Below are positions 15,301-64,000 of a stretch of DNA of 64,000 bases, piece after piece. Numbering within the stretch: position 1 is the first letter of the stretch; every line of letters starts with the position of its first letter. The notes beneath the pieces are model-generated. The model ran no database searches. It saw nothing but the letters and a program-made list of their open reading frames with translations, and was not told the origin of the DNA. Where the stretch lies: NCBI GenBank assembly GCA_051362555.1, contig CM120646.1, positions 5,518,001-5,582,000 on the forward strand. The letters are read 5' to 3'. This DNA comes from Lingula anatina (Eukaryota; Animalia; Brachiopoda). The position numbers and the translations under genes are program-made.

Positions 15301-15503
15301 ACAAAGACACAAGATTTTAATAACTCGCCCATTTTTTGACACATTTGTTCATTTTTCTGACATATTCGTTTATGTAAGCCCTTGCTGTCACAGCTCGTTG
15401 ATTTTGCTGCCTTAAAACACTTTCCCCGGTAACTTACAGCAAAAATGATATTGAGGATGACCAGGAAGACCCGGATGCAGTTCATTCCGCCGCTGAGCGC
15501 CAT
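12336..15503 (-). CDS. Tetraspanin family protein, 322 aa, 8 coding exons
   Basis: Exons 15503-15438, 15153-15060, 14304-14168, 13812-13738, 13471-13346, 13195-12959, 12732-12649, 12485-12336, all GT-AG and frame-consistent. Four TM helices, GFLGCCGA, and a large extracellular loop with CCG, PSCC, a further C and GCY. The C-terminal tail is Pro/Ala-rich. Confidence 0.93.
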
Positions 15504-16397
15504 GTTTGTTGGAGGCGTGCGCAGGCGGACGGTTTTGGTGCAGACGATTTGAGAGTTTCTTTATCCAACTGAAAGTCCACAATCAGCCTACATGGCAGTG
15601 ACAGTCTGGAAAGAAAATGAAAAAGAACTGAAATTTTTTCGAGCCAATATCAAATTCATATAATCAAAATAAATTGTAAATAAATAGCCTTTCCAGTGAC
15701 AGATGAAGTCTGTCATAGACTGAATTTAAGTTCTCGAACTGACATACGGATCGTGCCGAACAAAAAGGCAAGGGGACTTGTGGTTCGCAATATATGCTGC
15801 GGTGCTCGCAACAAGAATTTTAACGATCGCATCCATGAAATCGTAATTTGGCGTTCGCAACCACAAACCTGCGGCTTGAAATCACGAAAGACGGGCGTGA
15901 TCTACCTGTAGTTACTAGCTGATACGGTTAAACACGGATAGCCGACTACGCAATGTCGACTAAGCGATATTGGTCCAAAATCTTTTTGCTAACGATTGGT
16001 TCATAATAAATATAGTGCAGTTACATAAAGATGCTGTAGTCAACAATATAAAGACAACAACAAAGGTTTAGTTTTAATGAAAATAGAAAAAAAAGGGTAG
16101 GATCTTTGGGATCTTTGAAAAAAACGAAGTTGTCTCTAACAAGATTTTAAAAATATTTTCCCGTCGCTACTGTATGCGTGCATGAATATTTGACTATGGA
16201 TTAAGTAACACAAACCTTTATTATCTCACGTGAAACGCGGGAGGGCACACTGCGCCTCTTCAGCCAGTTAACACACCTGTTAACACGATTAATCTGTATA
16301 GTTACATGTCGCTATCTATATTTAATCACAATGTAAACACACGTTTTTTTTTTTTCGGGTAAATGCTGGTTTGATAGAGTCTCAAAGTTGATGAGTA

Positions 16398-25152: not shown

Positions 25153-25925
25153 GAATGGACTCGGCCCACCTGTGACCCCTAAGATGGAATGGATTTGTCC
25201 CACCTGTCACCCCTCAAATTAAATGAAATTGTCCCATTTGTCACCCCTCAAATCAAATGGTCTCATCCCACCTGTCATCCCTCATATGGAATGGACTCTC
25301 CCCACCTGCTACACCTCAAATGGAATGGACTTGACCCACCCATCCCCCCTCAACTCAAACGGACTTGCCCCACCTGTCATCCCTCATATGGAATGGACTC
25401 TCCCCACCTGCTACAACTCAAATGGAATGGACTTGACCCACCCATCCCCCCTCAACTCAAAAGGACTTGCCCCACCTGTTACCCTTAAATGGAATGGACT
25501 TAACCCACCCATAACCCCTCAAATGGAATGGACTCGTCCCACCTGTCACCCCTCAAATGCAATAGACTCATCCCACCTGCTACTCCTCAAATGCAATGGA
25601 ATCGCCCCACCTGTCACCTCTCAAATCGGATGAACTCGACCCACCTCTCACCCCTCAACTCAAAAGGACTCGCCCAACCTGTTACCCCTCAAATGGAATG
25701 GACTCGTCCCAACTGTCACCCCTCAAATCAAATGGTTTCGACCCACCTCCAACCCCTCAAATGCAATGCACTCACCCCACCTGCTACCCCTCAAATGCAA
25801 TGAAATCGCCCCACCTGTCACCCCTCAAATCGGATGTATTCTACCCAGCTCTCACCCCTCAAATCAAAAGGACTCGCCCTACCTGTCACCATTCAGAAAG
25901 GATTAATCTCAACTGTCATCCACAT
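25153..25925. repeat. About 30-bp C-rich minisatellite (cccacctgtcacccctcaaatggaatggact-like), about 25 units
   Basis: Recurring cccacctg...cccctcaaat...ggact with about 30-bp period. A 3-unit (about 90 bp) block is repeated near-identically at about 25267-25445. Confidence 0.9.
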
Positions 25926-27366: not shown

Positions 27367-30283
27367 AAAACTAGAGGATCAGAGAGGCGATACCGCCTCC
27401 GAATATTGTACCACCAGCTGGAGCAAGCGCATTCGTATAGACCCCCACATACACAAAATAAGGGACACAGCCACCAGTTTTGTGCTTGACAAGCTGTAAA
27501 AATGCAATCAACAAGAATTTTTAAACTATTGCAAAAAATATATATGGTACAATCAAATTTAAGTTCTTCGTAAGGTAGGTCAAGGGTCAATTTCAAGGTC
27601 ACAGTAAATTGCCAGTATATGACTTCCTATTCAAGTTCAAGAGTAACTATGGACCTATCTCTGTCAAGTTTGAAGTTAAAAGAGAAAGAAATTAGCAGAG
27701 TTCAGTTCATGATAAAAAGTAGGTCAAAGGTCAATTTCAAGGTCACATTTAGATTGCCAGTATATGATTTTCTATTCAAGTTCAATAGTAACTATGGACC
27801 TATCTCTGCCAGTTTTGGAGATAAAAGGGAAGCAAAATTTGCAAAGTTCAGTTTATGGTGAAAAGTAGGACAAAGGTCAATTTTAATGTCACATTTATAA
27901 TGCCAGTATATGACTTCCTATTCAAGTTCAATAGTAACTATGGACCTATCTCTGCCAGTTTTGGAGATAAAAGGAAAGCAAAATTTGCAAAATTCAGTTC
28001 ATGGTGTAAAGTAGGTCAAAGGTCAATTTTAAGGTCACATTTAGATTGCCAGTATATGACTTCCTATTCAAGTTCAATAGTAACTATGGACCTATCTCTG
28101 CCAGTTTTGGAGATAAAAGGAAAGCAAAATTTGCAAAGTTCAGTTCATGGTAAAAAGTAGGTCAAAGGTCAATTTCAAGATCACATTTAGATTGCCAGTA
28201 TATGACTTCCTATTCAAGTTCAATAGTAACTATGGACCTATCTCTGCCAGTTTTGGAGATAAAAGGAAAGCAAAATTTGCAAAGTTCAGTTCATGGTGAA
28301 AAGTAGGTCAAAGGTCAATTTCAAGGTCACATTTACATTGCCAGTATATGACTTCCTATTCAAGTTCAATAGTAACTATGGACCTATCTCTGCCAGTTTT
28401 GGAGATAAAAGGAAAGCAAAATTTGCAAAATTCAGTTCATGGTGTAAAGTAGGTCAAAGGTCAATTTTAAGGTCACATTTAGATTGCCAGTATATGACTT
28501 CCTATTCAAGTTCAATAGTAACTATGGACCTATCTCTGCCAGTTTTGGAGATAAAAGGGAAGCAAATTTTGCAAAGTTCAGTTTATGGTGAAAAGTAGGT
28601 CAAAGGTCAATTTTAAGGTCACATTTAGATTGCCAGTATATGACTTCCTTTTCAAGTTCAATAGTAACTATGGACCTATCTCTGCCAGTTTTGGAGATAA
28701 AAGGAAAGCAAAATTTGCAAAGTTCAGTTCATGGTGAAAAGTAGGTCAAAGGTCAATTTCAAGGTCACATTTACATTGCCAGTATATGACTTCCTATTCA
28801 AGTTCAATAGTAACTATGGACCTATCTCTGCCAGTTTTGGAGATAAAAGGAAAGCAAAATTTGCAAAATTCAGTTCATGGTGTAAAGTAGGTCAAAGGTC
28901 AATTTTAAGGTCACATTTAGATTGCCAGTATATGACTTCCTATTCAAGTTCAATAGTAACTATGGACCTATCTCTGCCAGTTTTGGAGATAAAAGGGAAG
29001 CAAATTTTGCAAAGTTCAGTTTATGGTGAAAAGTAGGTCAAAGGTCAATTTTAAGGTCACATTTAGATTGCCAGTATATGACTTCCTATTCAAGTTCAAT
29101 AGTAACTATGGACCTATCTCTGCCAGTTTTGGAGATAAAAGGGAAGAAAAATTTGCAAAGTTCAGTTCATGGTGAAAAGTAGGTCAAAGGTCACTTTCAA
29201 GGTCATAGTAAGATTGCCAGTATATGACTTCCTATTCAACTTCAATAGTAACTATGGACCTATCTCTGCCAGTTTTGGAGATATAAGGGACTAAATGTTA
29301 TAATTTTGGAGTTACCATAATGTGCCTTAAATTTCGTACAGAAAAAATTAATTAAAATAAAGAAAATGGCATTTTGGTCAAAATTCTTGAAATAGGAGGT
29401 GCTCTGAAGTTTCAGAAGTTCAAATTTGATGAAATAATGTCATTTTTGAACACAAGTTGTCTGCTTTGCCAAGCCTTATGTTTTATTTTTCCAGAGTTCA
29501 AAATTTATTATCCATTACCGTACTGCACATTTTGCTTTTACCACCAATATGTACTTTTTGATACAGCATAACTCGAAAACCGTATGGAATACAAAAAAAC
29601 CGAGACCACCTCCAGTGTTGGGCTTTACATGCTCTACAAAATGCAAAAAAGAATGGGTCTCTAGCATTAACGGTTCCCGAATTAAAGACAGTTTTCAGTT
29701 TCGGTATCTTATGGCCGCTACTCCCGTGAAAATGCACCGATTGACCCCAAATTCATGGAGATGAAAGATGACCTGATGGGTAACACTTTCCAATAATATT
29801 ATTGGTTAAATCTGTGTGGTGTCTGAATAACAGGGCAAAAAAAATTTTTTTCGTAAAAAATTTCATTTTTTTGAAAATTTTGGCCCATTTGACCTTGAAG
29901 TAAAGGTCAAAGGTCAAATCCAAGGGTATATTTGAAATCTACACATATGACTTTTGGAAAGCTGTCTATAGAAATTTTTCCCATAACTCCTTCCGTAGGG
30001 TAGATAATTAGCATTTAATTTTGCCATTTTTAGACAAGGGTGCATTGCAATGAGTGCCACACCCAGACCCCAATACCGACAAAGCCCAAATTTTACGTGG
30101 AACGAGTTGAGATTATAGGTGACCTAAATCCATGAGATGGGTACGGGGGCCCTTACCGTCTAGGAGGAGAAGCGGTAACGGTAGCCGTCCGGCGGAGCCA
30201 ACGGAGCCGGCGGAGCCGGCGGAACGATCCGGACGGGACCGAAACCATGTGTACCGCCAGCGCTAACGCTGGTGGTACAATAA
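27367..30283 (-). mobile_element. Non-autonomous Helentron-associated element (HINE/DINE-1-like) with central tandem array
   Basis: Minus strand begins ttattgtaccaccagc followed by its inverted copy (30250-30283) and a GTCC/GCCG-rich simple repeat (about 30185-30240). The other end has the subterminal IR gctggtggtacaata (27404-27418), a hairpin gaggcggtatcgcctc and CTAGTTTT. This is the known Helentron non-autonomous architecture. Confidence 0.8.
27572..29290. repeat. 146-bp satellite, about 12 monomers, with 438-bp (3-mer) higher-order periodicity
   Basis: aggtcaaaggtcaa recurs every 146 bp (27721, 27867, 28013 ... 29181). The diagnostic variant ggtgtaaag occurs at 28003, 28441 and 28879; near-identical spurious ORFs are 438 bp apart. 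Confidence 0.95.
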
Positions 30284-32235: not shown

Positions 32236-33345
32236 TTAGTGCAAGGGGAAAACATCCGGAAAGAAATCGGGTTCATCCTTCTCACTCCCATACAGAATGT
32301 TCTTTACTTGTGGTAAACTTCTCCAGCGCAGAACCTTTTGAATACCTGGATGGAACTTGTTGAATGCAGTGGTTATGAACTTTGTAGAGACTCTGTATTC
32401 CATATTGTGTTTTCTGCTGGCATTCCCTGGAATGTCAAAAAACATGGCCTGTCTCTTAAAGGTCCGAAGCAAGTTAATATTTTTCCCGTTGGCAGTTTTA
32501 ACTAAGTTGTTCTTGTCAAACCACGTTCTGAAATAATCGCGCGGTATGCGGAAATCGACAGAATCGGTGTAGGCTCCCTTTAACTTATTAACCGAGTGAT
32601 GCCTTGAATTGTCTGCGTACAGTGCGTTGCAACGGACACGATTTGAATTATAAAACATCGCAGATATGTGAATGACAAAATACTGCGCAAAGAACCATGA
32701 AGTGTGATCTAAATCGGTTATGTATGGCAACATGAAGGAAATTGTGTGGCGATGGAAACCGTTGAAAATAGCATCGAAGTTGTATCTCACCCCCACTGGG
32801 ACTGGAGCATCAAGGAGGTGAAAAAAATAACCTGGAAACCCAACTGCCGGTTGGAAATCTAGTAAAAACAGTTCAAATCGATCAAAAGGGTTGCTTGGTA
32901 AATTCTTTCGCCACCAGCGTTTCTTATTCTCCTCATTACGTAGCAACAAATCATCGTCCAGAAACAGGTAGTACAAGTAGCCGCCGTCATTCCTTTTAGA
33001 TGCACGTTCAATTGCTTCCCAAAGCAGCCGGTTACGACCTGTGGCATGAGTGCTCTTCGGAAAGTAGATGTCGCCTGTTTTGTCTCTGTATGTGAGCCAT
33101 ATTATTTCTCTATTCGGCGTGGCCTTGAGACCGGGAATAGGGTGTCTTGATGCGCCTTGGACGAGATAGACAAACTGTGGCCGTTGTGTCCATACTGGAG
33201 AATCATTTTCACCTATGCTACTTGATATCAGAAACCTGGCAATCTCAGAGTCTGGGAAACCAAAGCGAGCCATATATGGCACCCACAGGAGTATCACAGA
33301 GACAATTGCAAACAAGGATACGCGCATGCATTTCTTCATTGCCAT
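32236..33345 (-). CDS. Type II membrane putative glycosyltransferase (DxD/GT-A-like), copy A, 369 aa
   Basis: Uninterrupted ORF; ATG lies 13 nt after a conserved tttgtttAG acceptor. Short basic N-tail, one TM helix, stem, then YLVQG...TGRNRLL...YYLFLDDD...FDAIFNGFH...SWFFAQ. The gene is well supported; the function is inferred. Confidence 0.8.
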   Translation of the reverse strand: MAMKKCMRVSLFAIVSVILLWVPYMARFGFPDSEIARFLISSSIGENDSPVWTQRPQFVYLVQGASRHPIPGLKATPNREIIWLTYRDKTGDIYFPKSTHATGRNRLLWEAIERASKRNDGGYLYYLFLDDDLLLRNEENKKRWWRKNLPSNPFDRFELFLLDFQPAVGFPGYFFHLLDAPVPVGVRYNFDAIFNGFHRHTISFMLPYITDLDHTSWFFAQYFVIHISAMFYNSNRVRCNALYADNSRHHSVNKLKGAYTDSVDFRIPRDYFRTWFDKNNLVKTANGKNINLLRTFKRQAMFFDIPGNASRKHNMEYRVSTKFITTAFNKFHPGIQKVLRWRSLPQVKNILYGSEKDEPDFFPDVFPLH

Positions 33346-34300
33346 CTGAGTTTTGATCCTAAACAAAAAGAAAAAGAACAAAATTAATTTAATAAACCTT
33401 GATGTTTCTCTTCAGGAATACGCGGGACGCTATGCTAGGCACCAGTATATTTTAAATAATAAGGAAGTATTTGTATAACGCGGGTGTCTTCTTTCATTTG
33501 AGACAAAATAGATCGATTGTACTGACAAAATCATATTGGTCAGATGCTTGTGTTATTGTGCCAAATTAGGTGGCGTAAAAGATTTAAGAAAATTTTCTTT
33601 AAGGATAAATGACCAAATTATGAATGAAAACACCACAAGCCTATCACATATGTCGCTATGTGTGATGCAAATAATTTCGAATCAGTACATACAAATGGTA
33701 CAGCGGATTGTTTTGAGTTTGTAAACTGGTTCATAAATATACTAAAAATGCCTCAATTCACGGCAAATAACATGTTACTCAGTCAGGGATGGATCCAGAG
33801 ATATGATATGAATAACTTTGCCCTTACTAACAGTTTAACATGGAGTTCCGGATTTAAAAGGTTCATTTATTCTTTGAAAAAAAATGCAGGTAGCCGTTAT
33901 TCATATTAAAATCTAGTCGTAAATTTCTAAAGTAGTCACTGTCACTGCCACCACTGTCAAACAGTGAGTCAAAGTTACTGACATCTTTATGTGATGGGCA
34001 CTTGGTTGATTATAGCATCTTTTTGTAGGGCGATCTGCAAGGCCGGCTTGCCATGACCTTGCCAACAAAAATGATCCCAAGCTAGCTGAAAGATTCGACT
34101 GAGAAAGGGTACGTTTTTCAAGATTTAAAAAAATCTTCCAAATTTCATAGCAAATTTCAATCAATTTTGTACACCGAAAGTTAGCGCACTATGAAGAAAA
34201 TGACAAGGAATGATTCATCCAGCAGACGGGATATTATAGTAACGACTAAGGCAAAGCTTTAGTCTAGAAAGCTAATATTCTGATGCATGTGTCAGATTCT

Positions 34301-36916: not shown

Positions 36917-37288
36917 TTAGTGCAAGGGGAAAACATCGGGAAAGAAATCGGGTTCATCCTTCTCACTCCCATACAGGATATTCTTTACTTTTTGTAAACT
37001 TCTCCAGCGCAGAATTTTTTTAATAACTGGATGGGTTTTATTGAATGCAGTGGTGATGAACTTTGTGGAAACTCTGTATTCCATACTGTGTTTTTTGCTG
37101 GCATTTCCCGGAATGTCCACATACATAGCCTCCCTCTTTAAGGTCTGACACAAGGTTATTTTTTCCCCATTGACGGTTTTAACTTTGATGTTCTTGTTAA
37201 TCGACGTTCGAAAATAATCACGCGGTATGCGAAAATCGACAGAATCGGTGTAGGCTCCCTTCAACTTGTTAACCGAGTGATGCCTTGA
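36917..37288 (-). pseudogene. Glycosyltransferase-like copy B, only the 3' third retained
   Basis: Encodes ...RHHSVNKLKGAYTDSVDF...FPDVFPLH*. Homology stops abruptly at about 37288, where the sequence switches to the family's downstream-flank sequence (aagaattttgaagaa, cf. 45030). Confidence 0.85.
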
Positions 37289-37649
37289 AGAATTTTGAAG
37301 AACGATCTAGATTTGTTTAATATGAATTGATTATAAAAGAAAAAGTAATGGAATATATATATATATATAATATTTACTGGATGTATCAAGTGTGCCTTTA
37401 TGATACGAAAGCTTTTATCTACTGGAAATAATAGGTATATATGTATATATAGTTATCGTTTTTATGTGACTTTGTGTTAGATATTAGTTGACTGAAAATT
37501 GTTTAATATAAAGACACACACACCGTATACACCTTTATTTATTCTTTATTCTTATTTATTCTTTATTCTTTCCATCAACGAATGAAATCTCCGGTATTGA
37601 CATTGTAACCAGCCTGTGTCCCTGTGTAGTGATAGTATTCGATGCAATA

Positions 37650-39843: not shown

Positions 39844-40952
39844 TTAGTTCAAGGGGAAAACATCCGGAAAAAAATCGGGCTCATCCTTCCCACTACCATA
39901 CAGGATTTTCTTAACTTTTGGTAAACTTCTCCAGTGCAAAATCCTTTGAATACCTGGATGGGACTTGTTGAATGCAGTGGTTATAAACTTTGTGGAAACT
40001 CTGTATTCCATATTGTGTTTTCTCTTTGCATTTCCTGGTATGTCAAAATACATGGCTTCTCTCTTAAAGGTTCGAAGCAAGTCAATATTCTCCCCGTTGG
40101 CGGTTTTAACTGTGTTGTTCTTGTTGATCCACGTGTGAAAATAATCACGCGATATACGGAAGTCTTCAGAATCGGTGTAGGCTCCCTTTAACTTATTAAC
40201 CGAGTGATGCCTTTTATTTTTTGCGTACACCGCGTTGCAAAGGACACGATTTGAATTATAAAACATCGCAGATATGTGAATGACAAACCACTGCGCAAAG
40301 AACCATGAGGTGTGATCTAAATCGCTTATGTATGGCAACATGAAGGAAATTGTGTGGCGGTGAAACCCGTCGAAAATAGCATCGAAATTGTATTTCACCC
40401 CGACTGGGGCTGGAGCATGATGGTGGTAAAAAAATATCCTGGAAACCCAACTGCCGGTTGGAAATCTAGTAAAAACAGTTCAAATCGATCAAAAGGGTTG
40501 CTTGGTAAATTTTTTCGCCACCAGCGTTTCTTATCCTTCTCATTAGTTAGCAACAAGTCATCGTCTAGAAATAGGTAGTACAAGTAGCCGCCGTCATTCC
40601 TTTTAGATGCACGTTCAATTGCTTCCCAAAGCAGCCGGTTACGACCTGTGGCGTGAGTGCTATTCGGGAAGTAGATGTCGCCTGTTTTGTCTCTGTACGT
40701 CAGCCATATTATTTCTCTATTCGGCGTGGCGTTGAGACCGGGAATAGGGTGTCTTGATGCGCCTTGGACGAGATAGACAAACTGCGGTTGTTCTGTCTTT
40801 TCTGGAGAATCATTTTCAACTGTGCTACTTGATATCGGAGAACGGGTAATCACATTGCCTGGGAAATCCAAGCGAGCCATATATGGCACCCACAGGAGTA
40901 TCAGAGAAACAACAGCAAACAAGGAAAGGCGAATGCATTTCTTCCTCGCCAT
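39844..40952 (-). pseudogene. Glycosyltransferase-like copy C, full length but with a 1-nt frameshift
   Basis: 1109 nt versus 1110 in copies A and E. One base is missing in the A7 run at 40428-40434; adding it restores GYFFYHHHAPAPVGVKYNFD with no other lesion. Confidence 0.8.
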
Positions 40953-43423
40953 CTGAGTTCTGATCCTAAACAAAAATAAAATGACGAAATTAATTAAATA
41001 AACCTTGATGTTTCTCTGAATAATCAGGACGCTTTGCTATCCAGCAGCACATCTGGAATAATAAGAAAGTATTTTGAGGATGTTCTCTTTCATTTGAGAC
41101 AAAATAGATCAACTACACTTACAAAATGATATTCATGTTTTTGAGCCAAATGTAGTGGTGTAAAAGATTTGAGAATATTTTATTAAAGTTAAATGACCAA
41201 ATAATTAATGAAAAAGCCACGAATCAATCCAATGTACCACTATGTGTGAATCAAACAGTTTCGAATTAATAAATGTAACAGAGGATTGTTCAAACAGTTT
41301 TGGATTAGTAAATGTTACAGAAGATTGTTCTGAGTTTGTAAATTGGTTTACAAAAATACGAAAGATGCCTTAATTTACGAGAAATAGCGTGTTACTCAGT
41401 CAGGAGTGGATCCAGTGATATTTTCTGACAGTCTTCCAAATTATTGTTGCTGGTCTATCCTCCACTGCCCCCACCCCACACCGGTACACTCGCGCGCGCG
41501 GTTTGGACTTACTAATGTGCCAATTTATTGAAAAAATAATCCCTGTTGTTAAAAGTCAAATGTATCCAGTTTTTGCCACTTAAGAAAATGAGTTGCTGGT
41601 TCTGATAGGGAGCTTGTCCTAGAAGATGTTGGACCAAACATCTGAACGGTGAGAGCAGGGCAGGAGGGGGGGGGGGGGGGGGGCGTCTCAACACTCTTTC
41701 GAGGGGAGGACTGCCCCAAGAAAATCTGAAGCAAATGGTGCATTTTGGTAGCATTTCACCTATAAATCAATTGATATTAATGTGAACACTACATTTTTAA
41801 TCTTATTTCAGAAATTATAAATACAAGAAAATATAAAAAGAAACAACTCTTTTATCATCACTGCTCATTGCTTAATACGTTTATTATAGGCCATATATCT
41901 ACCAGTCAGCCTCGAATAGTACCTCTCTCAATTGTCACAGTTATCGGAATGTTTTTTCATAGAATTTATGAACCTTTTAAATCCAAAACTTCATGTTAAA
42001 CTGTTAGAAAGAGCAACATTATTCATATCACCTCATCGTAAATTTCTAAAGTGGTCACTTGCACTGCCACCACCGTCAAACCGTGAGTCAATGTCACTGA
42101 CATCTTGATGTGACGGGTATGTGGCTGATTAAAGCATCTTTTTGTAGGATGATCTGCAAGGCCGGCTAGCCATGGCCTTGCCAACAAAAATGATCTACGC
42201 AAATTCTTTTTCCCCAGCTAGCTAAAAGGATCTTTGTCTGGAAAATTCATATCATTTGCTTCTTTTCTGTTTTTTAGGAAGCGATAGGTCTTTTTTGCCT
42301 CCATTCCCAGTGCTTGGAGCAGCGGTAGGTTCTAGGAAGCGAACGTGTCGTAAACAAATACGACCTATTTAAAAAGCCGGCGCAAAACATGTAAAGACGC
42401 AATGCTTGGTTTTCAAATTATAAATCTTTCGGTTGAAATGTCCTTAAGAAACAAATTAATATATTCCCAAAGCAAACAACATTTTATTTCGTGTAATGTA
42501 TTACGATTGCGAACCATTTTATGAGGGCTGTTCCTAATCTTTTATTTCCTTTCTTATATTACAGCGCTTTTTCGATTGTTTCCCCAAGCACTTTTTCTTC
42601 CGCGAAAGTAATACCTGGGCATGCACATGCTTCAAGATTTTGATATGATCTAAACCACTCGAGGCGATCACAATCTCAAGACATCTATTGTCACCGAGGT
42701 TAGTAAGAAAGTCACGGGATACCATTACAGTCAAAGTAAGGTCGTCCACGAAATCTTAAATAGAAAAATAGAAAAAAAAGATGCCTGTCTAAGTAAACTT
42801 GAAAAATTCTGACCGAATTCCAGAAGACCGAGATCTTCCCCTGTCGAGTCAGTTTCTTCGAAGGGTTAAGGCATATGCTATCACAAAAAAGTACTTGTAA
42901 CTTTTCTTTAGTTAACTTACCTATCACTAACACTAATGCTGATAATTATTCTGATAAATTGCACAATAATGGCCACGAGTGGGCGCAAACTAACTAATCA
43001 AACTTACATCTGTACTAACCTGTTTTTTACTAATACCAAGGTATTGTTCTTTCCTGCGTCCGTCCGGTGGTTTTCTTGTAGTATTGTACACTGTATATGA
43101 CAAGATATAGTACAGTGGAGCCAAGATAAGAATCTATGTCACGATCTTTAACTATACAATGTATGAAGGGGCGGTGTCAGTGAATTATTTGACATGGATT
43201 AATAGGGGAATGATAACTTTAAACCGTTTTCTCCAATCAAATAATTTTGAGTAAAATACGTTGTTAACATCGAACCTTAGGTGATCTGAGAGAATAGATT
43301 CACAGAAGTTCCTGTTCAATTCTAATTGCGACCATCGTTTAGATATTTAAGTATTCAGAGTAACATCGAGATTAATTTAATTAATTTTGTTCTTCTTATT
43401 TTCGTTTAGGATCAGAACTCACA

Positions 43424-46126: not shown

Positions 46127-47236
46127 TTAGTGCAAGGGAAAAACATCAGGAAAGAAATCGGGTTCATCCTTCTCATTCCCATACAGGATTTTCTTTACTT
46201 TTGGTAAACTTCTCCAGTGCAGAATCCTTTGAATACCTGGATGGGACTTATTGAATGCAGTGGTTATAAACTTTGTGGAAACTCTGTATTCAACACTTTG
46301 TTTTCTCCTGGCTTTCCCTGGAATGTCAGTATACATGGCCTGTCCCTTAAAAGTCTGAAGCAAGTTAATTTTCCCCCCTTTAGCGGTTTCAACTGTGTTG
46401 TTCTTGTTAATCCACGTACGAAAATAGTCACGCGATATACGGAAGTCTTCAGAATCGGTGTAGGCTCCCTTTAACATATTGATCGAGTGATGCCTTGCAT
46501 TATTTGCGTACACCGCATTGCAAAGGACACGATTTGAATTATAAAACATCGCAGATATGTGAATGACAAACCACTGAGCAAAGAACCATGAGGTGTGATC
46601 TAAATCGCTTATGTATGGCAACAAAAAGGAAATTGTGTGGCGGTGAAACCCGTTGAAAATAGCATCGAAGTTGTATTTCACCCCAACTGGGGCTGGAGCA
46701 TCGTGCTTGTTAAAACTATATCTTGGAAACCCAACTGCCGGTTGGAAATCGAGTAAAAACATTTCAAATCGATCATAAGGGTTTCTTGGTAATTTTCTTC
46801 GCCACCAGCGTTTTTTATTCTCCTCATTAGTTAGCAACAGATCATCGTCCAGAAATAGGTAGTACAAGTAGCCGCCGTCATTCCTTTTAGCTGCACGTTC
46901 AATTGCTTCCCAAAGCAGCCGGTTACGACCTGTGGCATGAGTGCTATTCGGAAAGTAAATGTCGCCTGTTTTGTCTCTGTAAGTCAGCCATATTATTTCT
47001 CTATTCGGCGTGGCCTTGAGACCGGGAATAGGGCGTCTTGATGCACCTTGGACGAGATAGACAAACTGCGATTTTCTTGTCCTTTTGGGTGAATCATTTT
47101 CACCTGTGCTATTAGATATTGGAGAACGGGTAATCACAGTGTCTGGGACATCCAAGCGAGCCGTATATTGCACCCACAGGAGTATCACAGAGCCAACAGC
47201 AAACAAGAATACGTGAAAGCATTTCTTCATCGCCAT
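46127..47236 (-). CDS. Type II membrane putative glycosyltransferase, copy E, 369 aa
   Basis: Intact ORF colinear with copy A, with the same acceptor 13 nt before the ATG and the LFLDDD motif. Confidence 0.8.
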   Translation of the reverse strand: MAMKKCFHVFLFAVGSVILLWVQYTARLDVPDTVITRSPISNSTGENDSPKRTRKSQFVYLVQGASRRPIPGLKATPNREIIWLTYRDKTGDIYFPNSTHATGRNRLLWEAIERAAKRNDGGYLYYLFLDDDLLLTNEENKKRWWRRKLPRNPYDRFEMFLLDFQPAVGFPRYSFNKHDAPAPVGVKYNFDAIFNGFHRHTISFLLPYISDLDHTSWFFAQWFVIHISAMFYNSNRVLCNAVYANNARHHSINMLKGAYTDSEDFRISRDYFRTWINKNNTVETAKGGKINLLQTFKGQAMYTDIPGKARRKQSVEYRVSTKFITTAFNKSHPGIQRILHWRSLPKVKKILYGNEKDEPDFFPDVFPLH

Positions 47237-48839
47237 CTGAGACCCGATCCTAAACAAAAATAAAAAGAACAAAATTAATTAAAATAACCTTGATGTTCCT
47301 CTGAATTCTGAGGACGCTATGCTAACCAGCAGCGCATTTTAAATAATATGCTGTTTTGAGGATGTTCTCTTTCATTTGAGACAAAATAGATCGATTGTAT
47401 TAACAAAATCAGAAGCATATCGATATAGGCTACTATTGTTATTGAGGCTGATAATGTGGTTTAAAAGATTTGAGATTTTTTTATTCAAGATAAATCACCA
47501 AAGCAAGAATCAAAAGGCCACGAATGCATTCCACTCAGTTGCTCGGTTGCTTCAAAGGGTAAAGGTATATATGCTATCACAATAAGTACCTGTAACTATT
47601 CTTTTGTCACCTCACGTATCACTAACACTGCTGCTGCTAGTTATTCTGATAAATTCACATCTACTGCATAAAACAACTGGCCACGAGTGGGCGCAAACTA
47701 ACTCCCTTGTACATTTATACTAACCTGGGTTTTACCAGTACATTTGTCCTGCGTCCGTTCGCAGGCTCTATTCTAGTATTGTACACCGTTGAAGACAGGA
47801 TACAGTACAGTGCGGTCAAGATATGAATCTGTGTATCGCACGATCATCGACCCTACGATATATGTGTGTAAGTATGCAAATTATCATGATGGTCTGACCA
47901 ACAATTTTGGTAATTTCGGTTTAATTTGCATTTAATGATAAACTTCTCAGCTGCCCTGCATTATACATGTACTTGCACACGTATATACTGGGGAGGGGGA
48001 GGGGGCGGTGTCACCGTACAGTATTATTTGCCATGCATTCATAGGGAAATAATGAACTTCCATAAAAAACAATACTTTTGAAAAGAAAATTGATAACATC
48101 GCACTTAAGGTGATCTGGAGAATGGATTCATAAAATTTTAATTGTGGTCATCGTTTGAACATTTACCTTTGTGTGATTTGTCTTCGTTGGCACTTGAAGG
48201 CACTGTGCGTACAGCTCCCCCCCCTTCGAAAAAAAGTTAATTCCTAATTGATAAAATATTTAATTGTTTCACCCAAGTCCTCTTTTTAAAATTCCATGTC
48301 TTATGAACAAAATTTCCATGAGAATCGACCTTAAATCATTATTCGTAGATGCACACAGGGCGATAAAATAATAATAATAATAATAATAATAAATAGTACA
48401 TATTTCACGTAATTTCCATATCTAAATCTTATAAAGAACCTTAATAAAAAGAGATATTCCAACTAATTTCTAGATTCAATTCTAATCATAGCAACATAAA
48501 TAATTGCTTATAAAACCTTAATTCATACATGTAAAACGCCAGTACGATACAATACAAAGCTCCAAGAATGTCGAACAGGTTTTATTTGTCATTCTGTTGT
48601 GGTGTCCAATTCACACAGCCCCTACCATGCCAACCTGACAAGGTAACAGGAGAAGCCGCCCTACTACTAGACTCTTCTTTCCTGCCATGTTCTTCTTGTA
48701 GCTCGTACTGTGTATGTAGCTCCAAAAGTTCGTAATCAGGAGATGTCATTTTCAGAGCCATAGGGTGCATTCCCAGATCGATCCAGACGTTTAGATTTAG
48801 ATTGGCCTAACTCCTAACTATAACTAATTAGCTTTTTTG

Positions 48840-49295: not shown

Positions 49296-49947
49296 CTGTA
49301 ACTTGTCAGTGTACAGTATTAGAAGAAAGCCACCGAACGGTAAGTACAAACATGTATGTAATAAAGAGTAAGTTTGCGCCCACTCGTAGCCAGTTGTGTT
49401 CTGCAGTATATGTGAATTTAGCAGAATAATTAGTAGCAGCAGTATTATTGATACGTAGTTGACTAAAGAATAGTTACAGGCACTTTTTGTGATAGCATAT
49501 ACCTTTACTCTTTGAAGCAACTGAGTCTGAGTAACATGTCATTTCTCGCGAATTAAGGCATTCTTACGTACATTGTATTTTTGTTAACAAGTTTACAAAC
49601 CCCAAAAAATCCACTGTAACATTTATTAATCCGAAACTGTATACATCAGTCACACATAGCGGCACATGGGATTGATTCAGGGTCTTTTGATTCATAATTT
49701 GGACATTTATCTTTAAAGCAAAATCTTTTAAACCACTTCATTCATCTCAATAACATTAGCATCTAACGAATATAATTTTTAAATGACTTTTTGAGTACAA
49801 TCGATCTACATGTTGTACTTCGTCCTAAATGAAAGATACTTTTATTCTTTGAAAATGTGCTGCTGGTTTACATAAAAGGGCACGTATACAGAGGAACACC
49901 AAGATTAATTAATTTTCTTTTAATTTTTGTTTAGGATCAGAACTCAG

Positions 49948-51048
49948 ATGGCGAAGAAGAAATGCTTTCGCCTATCCTTGTTTGCCGTTGTCTCTGTGAT
50001 ACTCCTGTACGTGCCATATATGGCTCGCTTGGATTTCCCAGACACTGTGATTACCCGTTCTCCGATATCAAGTAGCAGAGTAGAAAATGATTCTCCAGAA
50101 ACGACAGGACAACCGCAGTTTGTCTATCTCGTCCAAGGCGCATCGAGACACCCTATTCCCGGTCTCAAGGCCACGCCGAATAGAGAAATAATATGGCTGA
50201 CGTACAGAGACAAAACAGGCGACATCTACTTTCCGAATAGCACTCATGCCACAGGTCGTAACCGGCTGCTTTGGGAAGCAACTGAACGTGCATCTAAAAG
50301 GAATGACGGCGGCTACTTGTACTACCTATTTCTGGACGATGACTTGTTGCTAACTAATGAGAAGGATAAGAAACGCTGGTGGCGAAAAAATTTACCAAGC
50401 AACCCTTTTGAACGATTTGAACTGTTTTTACTGGATTTCCAACCGGCAGTTGGGTTTCCAGGTTATTTTTTTCACCTCCCTGATGTTCCATCCCCAGTTG
50501 GGGTGACATACAACTTCGATGCTATTTTCAACGGGTTTCACCGCCACACAATTTCCTTCATGTTGCCATACATAAGCGATTTAGATCACACCTCATGGTT
50601 CTTTGCGCAGTGGTTTGTCATTCACATATCTGCAATGTTTTATAATTCAAATCGTGTCCTTTGCAAAGCGGTGTACGCAAAAAATAAAAGGCATCACTCG
50701 AGCAATGGAGCCTACACCGATTCTAACGATTTCCGTATATCGCGTGACTATTTTCGAACGTGGTTTAACAAGAACAACACAGTTAAAACCGCCAACGGGG
50801 AGATTATTTACTTGCTTCAGACTTTTAAGACACAAGCCATGTATTTGGACATTCCGGGAAATGCCAGCAGAAAACACAATATGGAATACAGAGTTTCCAC
50901 AAAGTTTATAACCACTGCATTCAATAAGTCCCATCCAGGTGTTCAAAGGATTCTGCACTGGAGAAGTTTACCAAAAGTAAGGAATATTCTCTATGGAAGT
51001 GAGAAGGATGAACCCGATTTCTTTCCGGATGTTTTCCCCTTGCACTAA
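49948..51048 (+). CDS. Type II membrane putative glycosyltransferase, copy F, 366 aa
   Basis: Intact ORF, inverted relative to E, with a 9-nt in-frame deletion (HHSSNGAY versus HHSVNKLKGAY). Confidence 0.8.
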   Translation: MAKKKCFRLSLFAVVSVILLYVPYMARLDFPDTVITRSPISSSRVENDSPETTGQPQFVYLVQGASRHPIPGLKATPNREIIWLTYRDKTGDIYFPNSTHATGRNRLLWEATERASKRNDGGYLYYLFLDDDLLLTNEKDKKRWWRKNLPSNPFERFELFLLDFQPAVGFPGYFFHLPDVPSPVGVTYNFDAIFNGFHRHTISFMLPYISDLDHTSWFFAQWFVIHISAMFYNSNRVLCKAVYAKNKRHHSSNGAYTDSNDFRISRDYFRTWFNKNNTVKTANGEIIYLLQTFKTQAMYLDIPGNASRKHNMEYRVSTKFITTAFNKSHPGVQRILHWRSLPKVRNILYGSEKDEPDFFPDVFPLH

Positions 51049-56913: not shown

Positions 56914-56982
56914 TCATTCTGTTAACAACTTCAGAGCTCTCACTGCTGGGATGACCTGGTCTATACGGCTGACACCTGTTAA

Positions 56983-57017
<35 letters not shown>

Positions 57018-57975
57018 GTTAAAAAAAAATAAAATGTCAGTGATTAAGGCCATGTGCAATTTTGCTCAAAAGCTGTGGAAAAATTGAACATTCATTTTTT
57101 ATTAATAATATGTCGAATAATACATAAAGTCTTTTACTCACTAATAAAGTAATGAAACAAAAAATACTGAAGTTACTATAAATTAATTTATTAAACTAAT
57201 GAAATTATTGAAGAATATCATAAACCTTCACTATAATCTTGTTTTACAAAAGTAAGAGGGTTAAGCTCCAAAACTAAATTTAAGTTAAAAAAAGGGCCTT
57301 CAAAAACAAATGATTTTTTTTGCTTTACAAACACTAAATAGACCATTTCATTCTAGTTTCAAAAGTTCAGCAGTCAAGTACAGAATGCCATGCCAACATA
57401 CAATATTCACAAATATATTTAAAATATATATTATACCTAGAATATCCATGAGTTTATCCATCATTTCCTGGAAAACTGGGAAGAATTCATCATGCTGCTC
57501 AAGGCGTTTACGGACACTGGAATGAATAAATATAAGGTATGTGAAAGCTTGAAAAAGGCAGGCAATGGAAATTCTTCTTAAAGAAAAGATGGTTTCATTC
57601 TTCTTATAAATAGTATGGTTTCAAAGGAACAAATCATTCAATTAACATAAATATCCAAGCTGCCTTTCTGCTTAATTATGATACTCATAAATCTTCTCAT
57701 TAACTTTTAATGTCTGTCAAACTATGGATGGACTAAAAACATCAAAATTTTATTGAAAACAAAATGTGTAGAAAACTAAAAAATGCACTTTTTTCACACC
57801 TCTAATATCACCTTTTTTTTCAGAAAAAGTAGTACACTGTACACACTGTACCTATCTAGGTCTTCCTCCTCCAGTAGTTGTTTCAGCTGCCTCCAGGTGG
57901 TGCTGGTGTGCTGTTGACACAGTTGACCCACAGCATCTACTATGGCAGTGGACTTGGCATCTTCAGCTGATTTAA

Positions 57976-58006
<31 letters not shown>

Positions 58007-59748
58007 ATTGATATGCTAATCTATACATTAATCTATAGAAAAATTATGTAAAAACTAATTGGGTGCAGGACACAAAACCTCCGCCCAGGTTCTTCTTGAG
58101 GACACTTGTTTGAGAGAACACAACTGAGCAATTGCTCTTCTCATGGGCCACAGGGTCTGGAAATCTATTTCTGCTAATCTCTGATTGATGATGCTGATGG
58201 TGGACTGTAGTCATTATGATGATGACAAAGATCAAACTCAAAGAGTACTTACGCAGTCCTAAGAGATCTCTGAGAGACCTAAGCACATTGTGGACCTCCC
58301 CAAGCTTGCTGTAGATCTCGTTCATTCTGGGATACACTCCATTCACAGATTCCACATCAAAAAGGTTCTGGAAGTGCTCCACTATGTTCTTCAGCACTGT
58401 ACCAGAAGGAAGCTCTGTGCCGTCCTGAAATACACCAAATCTCATCAATATTTTAAAATGGCAATGCAGCTTAACCCCCCTGTGTCTGTGAATTAATCTT
58501 GTCCGTTGGCTTGTCTGTCCATCCTCCCCTCCCCCGAACAAAAAGTTGGTAACTCTTATGGAAGTTGAAGTGTAACTATATATAGGATAAACAATTTAAT
58601 AAAGGTGGTTTTCTGTGTCCAATCAACATCTGTATCATCTTGCAATGCACATACATTTATAAAGTAAAATGAACAGTCGGGTAAATATAAAAATCTCAGA
58701 ACTGCACAAAAAGTTCAACAAAAGAAGCCTACATGGTTCCCCAACCTCATACTTTGCCCCTCTACTTACTGGCTCCTCTGACACGCCACCCTCAAAGGTC
58801 AAGGCATCAATGGCTGAAATGATCTGAGAGACTTTGGCGTCCCCCACCAGCTTACGGTACGTGAAGGGTGCGAGCCTGGTTGACAGCTTGTTCACAGATT
58901 GCTGCAACTCCTACGAGGTACAAAATCAAAAATTAAATTTATATTGCTATATAGCATTTGTGGTGCTTTGACGGCACACAATAGACTTAAAGAGTAGCTT
59001 TCTTATAAAATTTGTAGCTACATCTCAACCGGAATGTTCTAGATAAATTTTAAAGGAACAATGACTTAACAATACAGTATCTGTAAAATACACAAATTGT
59101 TCACACTCTGCTGCAACTCTTACAGGGTAAATTAATTTTTTTAATGACAAATAATTTTATACAATAAAATAAAATTTATATATATAATATATATATTTTC
59201 CCCTTTTTTCTACACTCTGATTCTTTTACAAGCATCTACAGTTTTTGTCTAAAGATGCCTTTTCATGTTCTGAAAACTGAAAACACTGATAATAAAATTC
59301 ATTTTTTAATCATTGTAATCAAAAGAAGTGAAAATAAAACTTAACTAAAAAGTTTTTGATAACTCATTTATAAAAGTTTTAAAAAAATCATAAATGGGAT
59401 CTTACTCTAAGAGAGGCAAGCTCCTGCACCCAGAATTCTAGAGTGGGTAGAACATGACTCCATGTCCTTTCACACCAGACTGCATGCTCTCGTTTGTGAG
59501 ATGTGCGCTGAGCAAAGTCTTTAAGTTTCGGGGCTCTTTCAGAATTAACAATCTTCAGTACATCTTTTGCAAACTGAGGAAATAAAAAATTCATTCATCA
59601 ATACAACTGAAAATTGATAAAAGTGCACAAAAAATTGCTGCATTATTGCTGTAAAGAGTTTCAACACTAATGAATTCTTAATCAATTATTACTGTCAATG
59701 GGTATTATTTCTTTTTTTATTCACAGCGTTACATATTTTTGTTGAAAA

Positions 59749-59792
<44 letters not shown>

Positions 59793-59930
59793 AAGAGAGA
59801 GAGAGAGAGAGAGACTGTCATCTTAACAAACCTGTTCAAGTCTTGGAAAAGCCTCAACTGCATTCTGCTGCTTTTCAATCTTTGGAGTTATATGCCTGAG
59901 GTCAAATACACCAAGACATTCACAGGTACC
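56914..59930 (-). CDS. CEP70: Centrosomal protein of 70 kDa, 3' seven exons (5' part outside the window)
   Basis: Exons 59930-59832, 59573-59406, 58910-58746, 58424-58253, 57966-57852, 57516-57437, 56975-56914, GT-AG and frame-consistent. [27 protein letters not shown]...HDEFFPVFQ...IDQVIPAVRALKLLTE* matches the CEP70 C-terminus as I recall it ([27 protein letters not shown]...HEEFFPAFQ). Confidence 0.9.
59751..59814. repeat. (GT)n(GA)n microsatellite in a CEP70 intron
   Basis: Direct reading. Confidence 0.9.
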
Positions 59931-60673
59931 CTAAAGATAACAAAAAAATTTAAACTTAATGATATTTTTAAAGTCAAACCGTCATCCTGATATTCTACTG
60001 TCTTAACCTAGAATGACAGCATGCATATACACACATGTAAAAAAACATCATGATTCAATTGAATATGTGAATATAATCTTATCAGATAATGTTTTCTGTG
60101 ACTGAACAAATAATAACAACCAAACTAAAACACATTACTGAATTGTTTTGCCAGTCTTGTTGCAATAACCAACTTGCTAAATAAATATGAGACAAATAAA
60201 AAAGAAGACTGAAATGGTAATACTGGGTATATGGCACCAAACCTTATCATACAAGTGATAGCTAGAAGATTGTAATTTAAAAAATGACACGCAGGTAAAC
60301 TACTGATAATTTATGTATATATTGCAACAAAATTAATTAAACTAAATGGGGGTTGGCTGATGTTTAAAAAAATAAACTGTTAGGTATGTTGATTGCAGCA
60401 GTATCAACAAATAAAAATGACAGAAAAATATCAAGTGTAGAAGAGAGAAGAATGGTATACTGGTATATAGACGAGTTTTTATCAGATAAAAAAGGAAACA
60501 AAGCTGTCAAATGTACAGACAAAAAAAAAAAAAAAAAAAAACTCATGCACAACAGGTAACATGATTAATCAGATTACAGTTTCAGGACCAGGTAGAGACA
60601 GTGAAAATACAAGTGAAGACAAATCGAATGATGTTAAGAAACTGACACACATTGGAAAAAATTATTTTTAGAA

Positions 60674-63600
60674 CATGATGTAGATTTGGCAAAAGATTGT
60701 GGCTGTGAATGTGATCAGTTGCAATTTTATGTCAACACCACACCAAAGTCCAGTCAACAGCTTTGTTTGTTTTGTTGTAGGATTAAACACTGTAAGATGA
60801 TTAGTTTACAGGTAGACAAGATAAAATCTTGATTGCAATCATAGCTCAGAAGTCACCTGTGGAAAGTCTACTACTTGGGCTGTGACAACTGTACACATGA
60901 CACATGAATAGAACAATGGTGACACTAAATACAACTGGTAAGAAGGGACAGACAGAGATAAGACAGCTTGACAGAAGTAAACTTGAATATCTTGACATAT
61001 TTGACATGTGGGATAAGGTATAAAAGCAACTACACAGTAGAAACCAGACAGAAAGCTCTTGGACAAGAGCATAAGAACAGTCATGATGTAAGGTGTACAT
61101 AAATTTTGGGCCATGATATAGAATTGGCAGAAGATTGTGGCTGTGAATGTGACCAGTCACAATTTTAAGTCAACATTACACCATGGTACAGACAGCGTGA
61201 AAACACAAGTGAAGATTTATTCGAAGATTCAACCCACTGTATATTTTTGGCAATAAAGGAGTGGCTGGGGAATATAACACCAGTGCTTCTTTTTGTCAAA
61301 CCTGTTCAGTGGGAAAAACCTCAAATAATGTGAAGAAATAGATGCAGATGGGATAAAAATTGGCCATGATGTAGAATTGGCAGAAGATTGTGGCTGTGAA
61401 TGTGATCAGTCGCAATTTTAAGTCAACATTACAACATGGTACAGACAGCGTGAAAACAGAAGTGAAGAAATGTACGAAGAAGATTTAACCCACTGTATAT
61501 TTTTGGCAATAAAGGAGTGGCTGTGGAATATAACACCAGTGCTTCTTTTTGTCAAACCTGTTCAGTGGGAAAAACCTCAAATAATGTGAAGAAATTGATG
61601 CAGATGGAAAACAAATTTGGTCATGATGTAAAATTGGCAGAAGATTGTGGCTGTGAAACTGACCAGTCACAATTTTATGTCAACATTACAACATGGTCAA
61701 GACAGCGTGAAAATACGAGTGAAGACGAATCGAATGATGTTAAGAATTTGACACACGTTGGGAAAGATTATTTTAGGCCATAATGTAGAATTGGCAGAAG
61801 ATTGTGGCTGTAAAACTGATCAGTTGCAATTTCATGTCAATACTACACCAAAGTCCAGTCAACAGCTTTGTTTGGTTTGTTGTAGGATTAAACATTGTAA
61901 GATGATTAGTTTACAGGTAGACAAGATAAAATCTTGATTGCAATCATAGCTGAGAAGTCACCTGTGGAAAGTCTACTACTTGGGCTGTGACAACTGTACA
62001 CATGACACATGAATAGAACAATGGTGACACTAAATACAACTGGTAAGAAGGGACAGACAGAGATAAGACAGCTTGACAGAAGTAAGCTTGAATATCTTGA
62101 CATATTTGACATGGGGGATAAGGTATAAAAGCAACTACACAGTAGAAACCAGACAGAAAGCTCTTGGATAAGAGCATAAGAACAGTCATGATGTAAGGTG
62201 TGCATACATTTTGGGCCATGATGTAGAATTGGCAGAAGATTGTGGCTGTGAATGTGACCAGTCATAATTTTATGTCAACATTACACCATGGTACAGACAG
62301 CGTGAAAACACAAGTGAAGAAATAATCGAAGATTCAACCCACTGTATATTTTTGGCAATAAAGGAGTGGCTGGGGAATATAACACCAGTGCTTCTTTTTG
62401 TCAAACCTGTTCAGTGGGAAAAACCTCAAATAATGTAAAGAAATAGATGCAGATGGGATAAAAATTGGCCATGATGTAGAATTGGCAGAAGATTGTGGCT
62501 GTGAATGTGATCAGTCGCAATTTTAAGTCAACATTACACCATGGTACAGACGGCGTTAAAAACAGTAGTGAAGAAATGTAAGAAGAAGATTCAACCCACT
62601 GTATATTTTTGGCAATAAAGGAGTGGCTGGGGAATATAACACCAGTGCTTCTTTTTGTCAAACCTGTTCAGTGGGAAAAACCTCAAATAATATGAAGAAA
62701 TTGATGCAGATGGAAAATAAATTTGGTCATGATGTAAAATTGGCAGAAGATTGTGGCTGTGAATGTGATCAGTCGCAATTTAAGTCAACATTACAACATG
62801 GTATAGACGGCGTGAAAACAGAAGTGAAGAAATGTACGAAGAAGATTTAACCCCACTGTATATTTTTGGCAATAAAGGAGTGGCTGGGGAATATAACACC
62901 AGTGCTTCTTTTTGTCAAACCTGTTCAGTGGGTAAAACCTCAAATAATGTGAAGAAATAGATGCAGATGGGATTAAAATTGGCCATGATGTAGAATTGGC
63001 AGAAGATTGTGGCTGTGAAACTGACCAGTCACAATTTTATGTCAACATTACACCATGGTACAGACAGCGTGAAAACAGAAGTGAAGATTTATTCGAAGAT
63101 TCAACCCACTGTATATTTTTGGCAATAAAGGAGTGGCTGGGGAATATAACACCAGTGCTTCTTTTTGTCAAACCTGTTCAGTGGGAAAAACCTCAAATAA
63201 TGTGAAGAAATAGATGCAGGTGGAAAACAAATTTGGTCATGATGTAAAATTGGCAGAAGATTGTGGCTGTGAAACTGACCAGTCACAATTTGATGTCAAC
63301 ATTACAACATGGTCAAGACAGCGTGAAAATACAATTGAAGACGAATCGAATGATGTTAAGAATTTGACACACGTTGGGAAAGATTATTTTAGGCCATGAT
63401 GTAGAATTGGCAGAAGATTGTGGCTGTTAAACTGATCAGTTGCAATTTCATGTCAATACTACACCAAAGTCCAGTCAACAGCTTTGTTTGGTTTGTTGTA
63501 GGATTAAACATTGTAAGATGATTAGTTTACAGGTAGACAAGATAAAATCTTGATTGCAATCATAGCTGAGAAGTCACCTGTGGAAAGTCTACTACTTGGG

Positions 63601-63907
63601 CTGTGACAACTGTACACATGACACATGAATAGAACAATGGTGACACTAAATACAACTGGTAAGAAGGGACAGACAGAGAAAAGACAGCTTGACAGAAGTA
63701 AACTTGAATATCTTGACATATTTGACATGGGGGATGAGGTATAAAAGCAACTACACAGTAGAAACCAGACAGAAAGCTCTTGGATAAGAGCATAAGAACA
63801 GTCATGATGTAAGGTGTGCATAAATTTTGGGCCATGATGTAGAATTGGCAGAAGATTGTGGCTGTGAATGTGACCAGTCACAATTTTATGTCAACATTAC
63901 ACCATGG
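60674..63907 (+). ncRNA. Candidate pre-miRNA hairpin family A, 12 copies; predicted 5p AUUGGCAGAAGAUUGUGGCUGU
   Basis: Copies start at about 60674, 61111, 61364, 61621, 61778, 62216, 62469, 62727, 62983, 63237, 63394, 63832. ttggcagaagattgtggctg pairs with cagtcacaattttatgtcaa (19/20 pairs, 3 G-U), with a 10-nt loop and lower stem ccatgatgta/tacaccatgg. Confidence 0.7.
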
Positions 63908-64000
63908 TACAGACAGCATGAAAACACAAGTGAAGAAATATTCAAAGATTCAACCCACTGTATATTTTTGGCAATAAAGGAGTGGCTGGGGAATATAACA
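61233..64000 (+). ncRNA. Candidate pre-miRNA hairpin family B, 7 copies (last truncated by the window); predicted 5p UUUGGCAAUAAAGGAGUGGCUG
   Basis: Copies start at about 61233, 61489, 62338, 62595, 62852, 63105, 63954. tttggcaataaaggagtggctgg pairs with ccagtgcttctttttgtcaaa (2 bulges, G-U pairs), with an 11-nt loop, basal stem cccactg/cagtggg, and CCTC (CNNC) 17 nt past the predicted 3' cut. Confidence 0.7.

Follow-up and report, generated by a model that had tools for sequence, protein, structure and literature searches.

Does the satellite-like repeat at the end of this 64,000-nucleotide stretch of the Lingula anatina genome (assembly GCA_051362555.1, contig CM120646.1, positions 5,518,001 to 5,582,000; the whole stretch that was analyzed is here called the window) encode microRNAs? 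The repeat is a tandem array of two hairpin types, A and B, and this hairpin array is real as a feature. The array is probably a tandem microRNA cluster that is transcribed from the + strand, with processing inferred; it is likely functional and apparently unannotated. An earlier note on this DNA proposed a polycistronic, tandemly amplified microRNA locus, and this proposal is supported in part by the geometry of the precursors, the position of a CNNC motif, the stem changes between A and B and + strand reads that are depleted over the hairpins. The earlier note overlooked the likely antisense position of the array in CEP70 and a seed that resembles that of the MIR-96 family.

Organization of the array

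The array spans about 60595 to 64000 on the + strand and thus reaches the window end; a start near 60595 replaces the 60674 proposed earlier. Its period is 256-257 bp, to which larger blocks are added. Anchors counted on the + strand give 12 type-A and 7 type-B hairpins (at least 19), as had been claimed, of which 18 are complete and one, B7 (63967-64000), is truncated by the window end. With the lower stem included, the A hairpin is 78 nt and the B hairpin 81 nt long. A 23-nt A block occurs exactly 11 times in the array, which bears out the claim of one block identical in 11 of the 12 A copies. The higher-order unit is composed of an A hairpin with D-type flanks, spacer C, (A-B)n, a further A hairpin and spacer D, where n is 2, 4 and at least 1, and the starts of the blocks are separated by 1105 and 1616 bases.

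The predicted A precursors, all on the + strand, are A1 (60685-60738; degenerate, with a weak lower stem), A2 (61123-61176), A3 (61376-61429), A4 (61633-61686), A5 (61790-61843; D-type flanks), A6 (62228-62281), A7 (62481-62534), A8 (62739-62791; one-base deletion in the 3p arm, that is, the 3' arm of the stem), A9 (62995-63048), A10 (63249-63302), A11 (63406-63459; D-type flanks) and A12 (63844-63897). The predicted B precursors, on the same strand, are B1 (61246-61302), B2 (61502-61558), B3 (62351-62407), B4 (62608-62664), B5 (62865-62921) and B6 (63118-63174). The predicted guide is the 5p (5') arm, exemplified by 62995-63016 in A9, where the start is possibly one base upstream, and by 63118-63140 in B6. 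Spacer C measures 384 nt between predicted cuts in each of its three + strand copies (60739-61122, 61844-62227 and 63460-63843), and spacer D measures 103 nt at 61687-61789, with other copies at 63303-63405 and, in part, at 60595-60684. In the decayed A1, two 5p substitutions make the first 8 bases identical to those of B. Every B 5p arm includes an AATAAA on the transcribed strand (61252, 61508, 62357, 62614, 62871, 63124 and 63973), which is a possible polyadenylation signal that may compete with cropping.

Folding and precursor geometry

Folding of the units on both strands, a check that the earlier note had proposed, sets the array apart from its surroundings. Strong folds are found for 17 of the 18 complete hairpins (z of -3.8 to -6.0 against 60 dinucleotide shuffles each), and the + strand fold is better than the - strand fold in all 18, by a margin of 2.7-16.9 kcal/mol. 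A1 folds weakly (z of -1.4 with 60 shuffles); in the 200-shuffle repeats, which were made for four hairpins, its z is -1.2 and is equalled by 26 of the 200 shuffles. When a strong-hairpin filter is applied to 90-nt windows, 17 of 221 pass on the + strand of the array compared to 8 of 4028 in the remaining window and 0 of 108 in a 146-bp satellite. The ordinary satellites that serve as folding controls are located at 25153-25890 (34 bp, 22 copies) and 27575-29288 (146 bp, 12 copies). The strongest fold of the window (14776-14880) is simply a poly-G run paired to a poly-C run, and a sliding fold over spacer C yields no third hairpin type.

The cut sites are placed from the basal junction, with an overhang of 2 nt. 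The predicted precursors are then 53-57 nt long, with 17-20 pairs within the first 22 nt and a loop of 10-11 nt (18 of 18; 12 distinct sequences). The MirGeneDB 3.0 reference is a mean precursor of 60 nt, 19 +/- 1.6 pairs and a loop minimum of 8 (PMC11701709). All 18 predicted precursors agree with the MirGeneDB structural criterion of about 19 pairs, a loop of at least 8 nt and a precursor near 60 nt. The lower stem runs from -13 to about +11 and has 9-11 pairs in 15 of the 18 hairpins.

A CNNC motif is positioned at +17 in 18 of 18 hairpins, across three unlike flanks (ordinary A, D-type A and B) and against an array background of 2.8% per position; the motif was already known when the choice was made between two possible A registers, the alternative of which puts CNNC at +16. 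The usual position of this motif is 16-18 bases downstream. An apical-junction UGUG is present in 10 of 12 A and 1 of 6 B hairpins, and a basal UG at -15 in 6 of 12 A and 0 of 6 B. A U.U mismatch at -6/+4 is found in B, and in A if the upstream register is used, without the C and the purine of the CmR motif. The positions of the basal UG and of the mismatch speak for moving the A start one base upstream, and the A seed would then shift with it.

Conservation of the hairpins

The copies are related through recent duplication; thus, counts of conserved columns are non-independent events. Among 11 A copies (A1 excluded), variable columns number 0 of 22 in the 5p arm, 8 of 22 in the 3p arm, 4 of 10 in the loop and 13 of 20 in the flanks, and the inclusion of A1 raises the 5p count to 2 of 22. 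The difference in variability between the 5p and 3p arms has a Fisher p of 0.002 without A1 and 0.034 with A1, values that are descriptive only, the copies being kin. Across six A-B units, variable columns number 1 of 81 in the B hairpin and 30 of 100 in the spacers. The proposed signature of a conserved arm with a drifting loop and star arm therefore holds for A, in which the guide arm is more conserved than star and loop, and fails for B, in which the whole hairpin is nearly invariant and uninformative on this point.

Within the A copies, 95% of cells pair, and each of the three substitutions that fall in the 12-pair core is a G-U wobble. When A is compared to B over 20 stem positions in a hand-set register, 13 positions are the same, 2 differ on one side only, 3 have two-sided differences and 2 lack pairing in one of the types. 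The three two-sided differences are consecutive pairs in which pairing is kept.

Transcription of the array

Four of nine Lingula RNA runs (X1, X4, X5 and X7) are mapped onto 59816-61360, with 1.1-1.8 billion letters read. In X1, first mates are only + on the exons of CEP70, the neighbouring - strand gene, and only - on spacer C; thus, the array RNA is of the + strand. The X1 reads (about 40) cover 60752-61063 of the first spacer C copy at a depth of 4-29, with a depth of 0 on A1 and 0-2 on A2-B1. Mean depth is 18 on spacer C versus about 1 on the A-B stretch that follows, though A-B units outnumber C. If every hairpin were cropped, the leftover fragments would measure 69-74, 103 and 384 nt; the last of these, spacer C, is the only one long enough for such a library, and reads would then fall on C but hardly on the hairpins. 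CEP70 reads are most abundant in X1 as well, with a peak depth of 151 compared to 0.7, 3.5 and 3.8 in the other three. At 61015-61038, four of five X1 reads carry 11 differences, which suggests a diverged spacer C copy outside the window, perhaps at the end of the array.

Probable setting in CEP70

A - strand exon at 58245-58463 matches the Lingula anatina "centrosomal protein of 70 kDa-like" with 100% identity over 78% of its length (best of 6 matches, 66 candidates), and seven - strand exons within 56917-59930 match this CEP70-like protein at 92-100%. The exon closest to the array is at 59832-59930, from which spliced reads run on to an upstream exon that is absent from the window; the six others, which form the C-terminal part, are at 59582-59406, 58910-58770, 58424-58254, 57967-57854, 57518-57432 and 56976-56917. 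The spliced reads from the exon end at 59930 (55 in X1, 5 in X7) continue into a sequence interpretable as the preceding exon of CEP70, and the peptide of this exon is absent from all six frames of the window. The named Lingula protein is 293 aa long versus 632 aa in a nemertean relative, and residues 1-382 of the nemertean CEP70 have no match anywhere in the window. Since the next upstream exon of CEP70 is absent from the window, the array likely occupies a CEP70 intron in antisense orientation. The named 293-aa protein is a truncated model, as reads splice to the true upstream exon; its first 15 residues are not encoded within the window.

Seed and family relationships

The 5p arms of A and B both carry UUGGCA at positions 2-7, followed at position 8 by G in A and A in B. 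The MIR-96 family (miR-96/182/183 and miR-263; Lan-Mir-96-P1 to P3 in Lingula), an ancient microRNA family of ciliated sensory cells, resembles the array in its 5p guide (predicted here) and in UUGGCA at 2-7. The 2-8 seed of B is presumably that of vertebrate miR-182. By contrast, position 8 is C in the six protostome MIR-96 members compared, and the curated 2-8 seeds of the family (UUGGCAC, UUUGGCA and AUGGCAC) are not found in the favoured registers, where 2-7 match and position 8 does not. A search of Rfam gives 0 matches at gathering score and 14 chance-level matches at E up to 10, none of them to MIR-96. Because position 8 differs and no Rfam family matches, the array hairpins are not filed under MIR-96 on sequence grounds.

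When aligned by eye to supplementary sequences (PMC12257675), the B 5p arm equals Pdu-Mir-96-P1b at 15 of 21 positions (with a one-base offset) and Lan-Mir-96-P1 at 12 of 23. The binomial chance of the 15/21 match is 2e-5 to 1e-4 per comparison; given about 113 genes, several offsets and arms and a look that was prompted by the seed, the likeness is suggestive. Derivation of the array seed from a MIR-96 paralogue is possible but somewhat doubtful. The MIR-96 family is already represented in Lingula by three single-copy members (MirGeneDB 2.1), unlike the multi-copy array, and Lan-Mir-96-P2 and -P3 lie together on LFEI01000342 according to the same supplement (PMC12257675).

The MirGeneDB 2.1 list for Lingula (about 105 genes, names only) includes no family above 11 copies and none like the array. 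It holds three Mir-96 genes and two single Novel genes, and the MirGeneDB 3.0 supplements name one Lan-NOVEL-1. One array hairpin may already be named as Lan-Novel-1 or -2, which are single entries. None among the papers listed describes this locus, in a full-text search that excludes supplements, where sequences could stand; a literature search with arm motifs gives one match, an unrelated plant paper. The words miRNA and microRNA have 0 occurrences in the main text of the 2026 Lingula genome paper (PMC13121700).

Other relationships were considered as well. For MIR-2, the A 5p arm has 10 bases in common with the star arms of Platynereis Mir-2, but no Mir-2 seed is found in the 3p arms; the seeds of MIR-34 and MIR-31 differ from the array arms; and a metagenome scan with a degenerate B-arm pattern yields 4 loci with no comparable hairpin, which are taken as chance. 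A low-score, 6-read miRDeep2 prediction on Platynereis scaffold_9 shares about 17 of 21 positions with the A 5p arm, by eye and with one gap (PMC12257675 supplement 2, row 99); this likeness is probably chance.

Proposed mechanism and function

In the favoured explanation, a promoter of its own, on the strand opposite CEP70, would drive a polycistronic + strand primary transcript, from which Drosha/DGCR8 would crop two kinds of precursor for subsequent dicing. The 5p arms, as putative guides, would become two microRNAs with a common 2-7 seed of UUGGCA. Unequal crossing-over may have taken one ancestral hairpin to A and B, then to A-B dimers and then to blocks of 1.1-1.6 kb, with a rise in dose. 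The job of the cluster, proposed with a little under even confidence within this explanation, would be a burst, limited by stage or tissue, in which mRNAs with the matching 6-mer site are repressed in cells that are rich in CEP70 and build centrioles or cilia, such as male germ cells or those of a ciliating embryo. CEP70 is linked to spermiogenesis and flagella in mammals (PMC8116340).

The same cluster could instead clear maternal mRNA at zygotic genome activation in the manner of miR-430, which rivals the function and not the identity of the array and appears rather unlikely. Its architecture fits, an annelid has an early-embryo tandem cluster reminiscent of miR-430 (PMC8915122), and its absence from three of the four runs indicates that array expression is restricted. 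However, the annelid products mature mostly from the 3p arm with UAAGCA starts and are unrelated to the array arms (rows 1-32 of 91 in that source), and the array signal is found in the CEP70-richest sample. The clearance role suggested earlier is thus left unsupported, the seed being unlike that of the published annelid embryo cluster. A burst in CEP70-rich cells is favoured over clearance for the job, and the two may overlap.

The most complete version of the proposal is speculative and, taken as a whole, unlikely: a MIR-96-derived, seed-shifted hairpin would have been amplified to at least 19 copies antisense in CEP70 as a brachiopod high-dose germline or embryonic burst, co-regulated with the centriole programme and overlooked by curated annotation. 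If true, the seed would be unlike that of every known clearance cluster. If real, the array would be the largest Lingula microRNA cluster by copy number, since the curated Lingula complement has no family of such copy number; it would indicate that stage-restricted clusters escape annotation when satellite-like, and would add a brachiopod, with a new seed, to the examples of convergent dose amplification. The standing question that it touches is the spiralian use of lineage-specific microRNA bursts in the germline or the maternal-to-zygotic transition.

Evidence against and alternative explanations

Several points weigh against a processed microRNA cluster in a CEP70 intron. The intronic placement assumes that the missing CEP70 exon lies past 64000 on the same chromosome. 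The B hairpins are without a basal UG (6 of 6) and mostly without an apical UGU/GUG (5 of 6), and the C and the purine of CmR are missing. Array expression is drawn from one of the four mapped runs (about 40 reads; 6% of that run), the depth in X4, X5 and X7 is at most 1.9x, and the opposite strand has a depth of 1-2x over A2 in X1 and X4. Of the 21 listed differences in X1 spacer C reads, 15 match none of the three window copies; thus, the reads may originate from other copies, alleles or another locus. In X1, six of 11 molecules end at 60758; this is the final base of CNNC and lies 20 bases downstream of the predicted cut. Hairpins may drop out of libraries for technical reasons, as they resist library preparation; A1 is too diverged to attract reads of D-type A; and an internal piece should gain no advantage from poly(A) selection. 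Covariation among the A copies is no greater than in column shuffles (186 of 500), with no two-sided change; this is expected when one arm is fixed, but lends the stem no support from covariation. Over its full length the A hairpin has 9 G-U sites versus 7 A-C sites, and in the upper stem 6 versus 2. The homology of A and B is modest (19 of 2000 shuffles are as good), and none is detected between the spacers (850 of 2000).

An improbable alternative is that an ancient microRNA-like hairpin gave rise to a satellite, now spread by neutral tandem turnover, in which the hairpins are unprocessed relics. The 256-257-bp period with higher-order blocks is satellite-like, A1 has decayed, and the copies are recent, such that homogenisation could mimic conservation; the A copies also show no covariation signal. 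Homogenisation leaves unexplained, however, why the A 5p arm and the B hairpin are spared when 30% of spacer columns vary, why the CNNC position is kept in three unlike flanks and why the + strand reads avoid the hairpins. The other satellites of the window do not fold in this way.

A precursor of Piwi-interacting RNA (piRNA) or endogenous small interfering RNA (endo-siRNA), or a long non-coding RNA on spacer C, would render the hairpins incidental and is very improbable. A repeat transcribed from one strand in a CEP70-rich sample is in keeping with such RNAs, and reads that are limited to C and share a 5' end at 60758 could represent a separate short RNA. By contrast, the arm-specific conservation points towards one defined product, and these RNA classes are not expected to show 54-57-nt hairpins with Microprocessor geometry and motif.

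Least probable of all is that the hairpins are the terminal inverted repeats of a small miniature inverted-repeat transposable element captured in tandem, for while they are short inverted repeats with 30 or more pairs, there is no long inverted repeat at the DNA level inside the array, the stems rely on G-U pairs and in all 18 cases one strand gives the better fold, blastn of the first unit within the window places 0 of 25 matches outside the array, no target-site duplication pattern is found within the window, and A and B share their geometry despite different lower stems.

Two further readings were rejected. A coding array is discounted as its open reading frames (ORFs) are translations of the repeat without starts of note, and a microRNA on the - strand (intronic and in the sense of CEP70) as its folds are weaker in 18 of 18 and the array reads are of the + strand.

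Other features of the window

Elsewhere in the window, five paralogues encode a 370-390-aa, single-ORF protein (32236-33411, 36917-37306, 39844-41036 and 46127-47278 on the - strand; 49924-51048 on the + strand). This protein family has an N-terminal hydrophobic stretch; one copy is partial and one is split over two frames. The one member tested has no Pfam match. The - strand also carries an ORF of 497 aa that is rich in lysine and includes a small acidic protein (SMAP) domain (2927-4420) and tetraspanin-like exons (12866-13213 and 15225-15560), the first of which has a weak Pfam match below the cut-off.

Comparison with known tandem clusters

Fish miR-430, Xenopus miR-427 and the Drosophila testis clusters resemble the array in high-copy tandem precursors, in higher-order units and in amplifying the dose of one seed. 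They differ from it in seed and arm, the miR-430 family seed being on the 3p arm. The array shares the high-copy tandem organization of the miR-430 type and lacks its 3p seed, the conserved arm being 5p with another seed. The miR-449 cluster, which resides in an intron of CDC20B, is likewise a microRNA cluster inside a centriole-related gene. The three copies of miR-449 lie in the sense orientation of their host, whereas the array is likely antisense, has at least 19 copies and differs in seed from MIR-34 (Pdu-Mir-34).

An early-embryo tandem microRNA cluster of the annelid Capitella teleta, on CAPTEscaffold_488, is described as reminiscent of miR-430, and the fish, Xenopus and Drosophila testis clusters are named as its analogues (PMC8915122). 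Like the array, the Capitella cluster is lophotrochozoan and lineage-restricted, with tandem precursors 130-350 bases apart and a shared seed start. In contrast to its mostly 3p products, the predicted products of the array are 5p with UUGGCA, and the sequences are unrelated; the Lingula copies are also far more uniform. Expression of the Capitella cluster is shown by small-RNA reads, whereas the mature products of Lingula are predicted from the hairpins. The array probably belongs with the known tandem microRNA clusters, among which its seed, arm and position are unusual.

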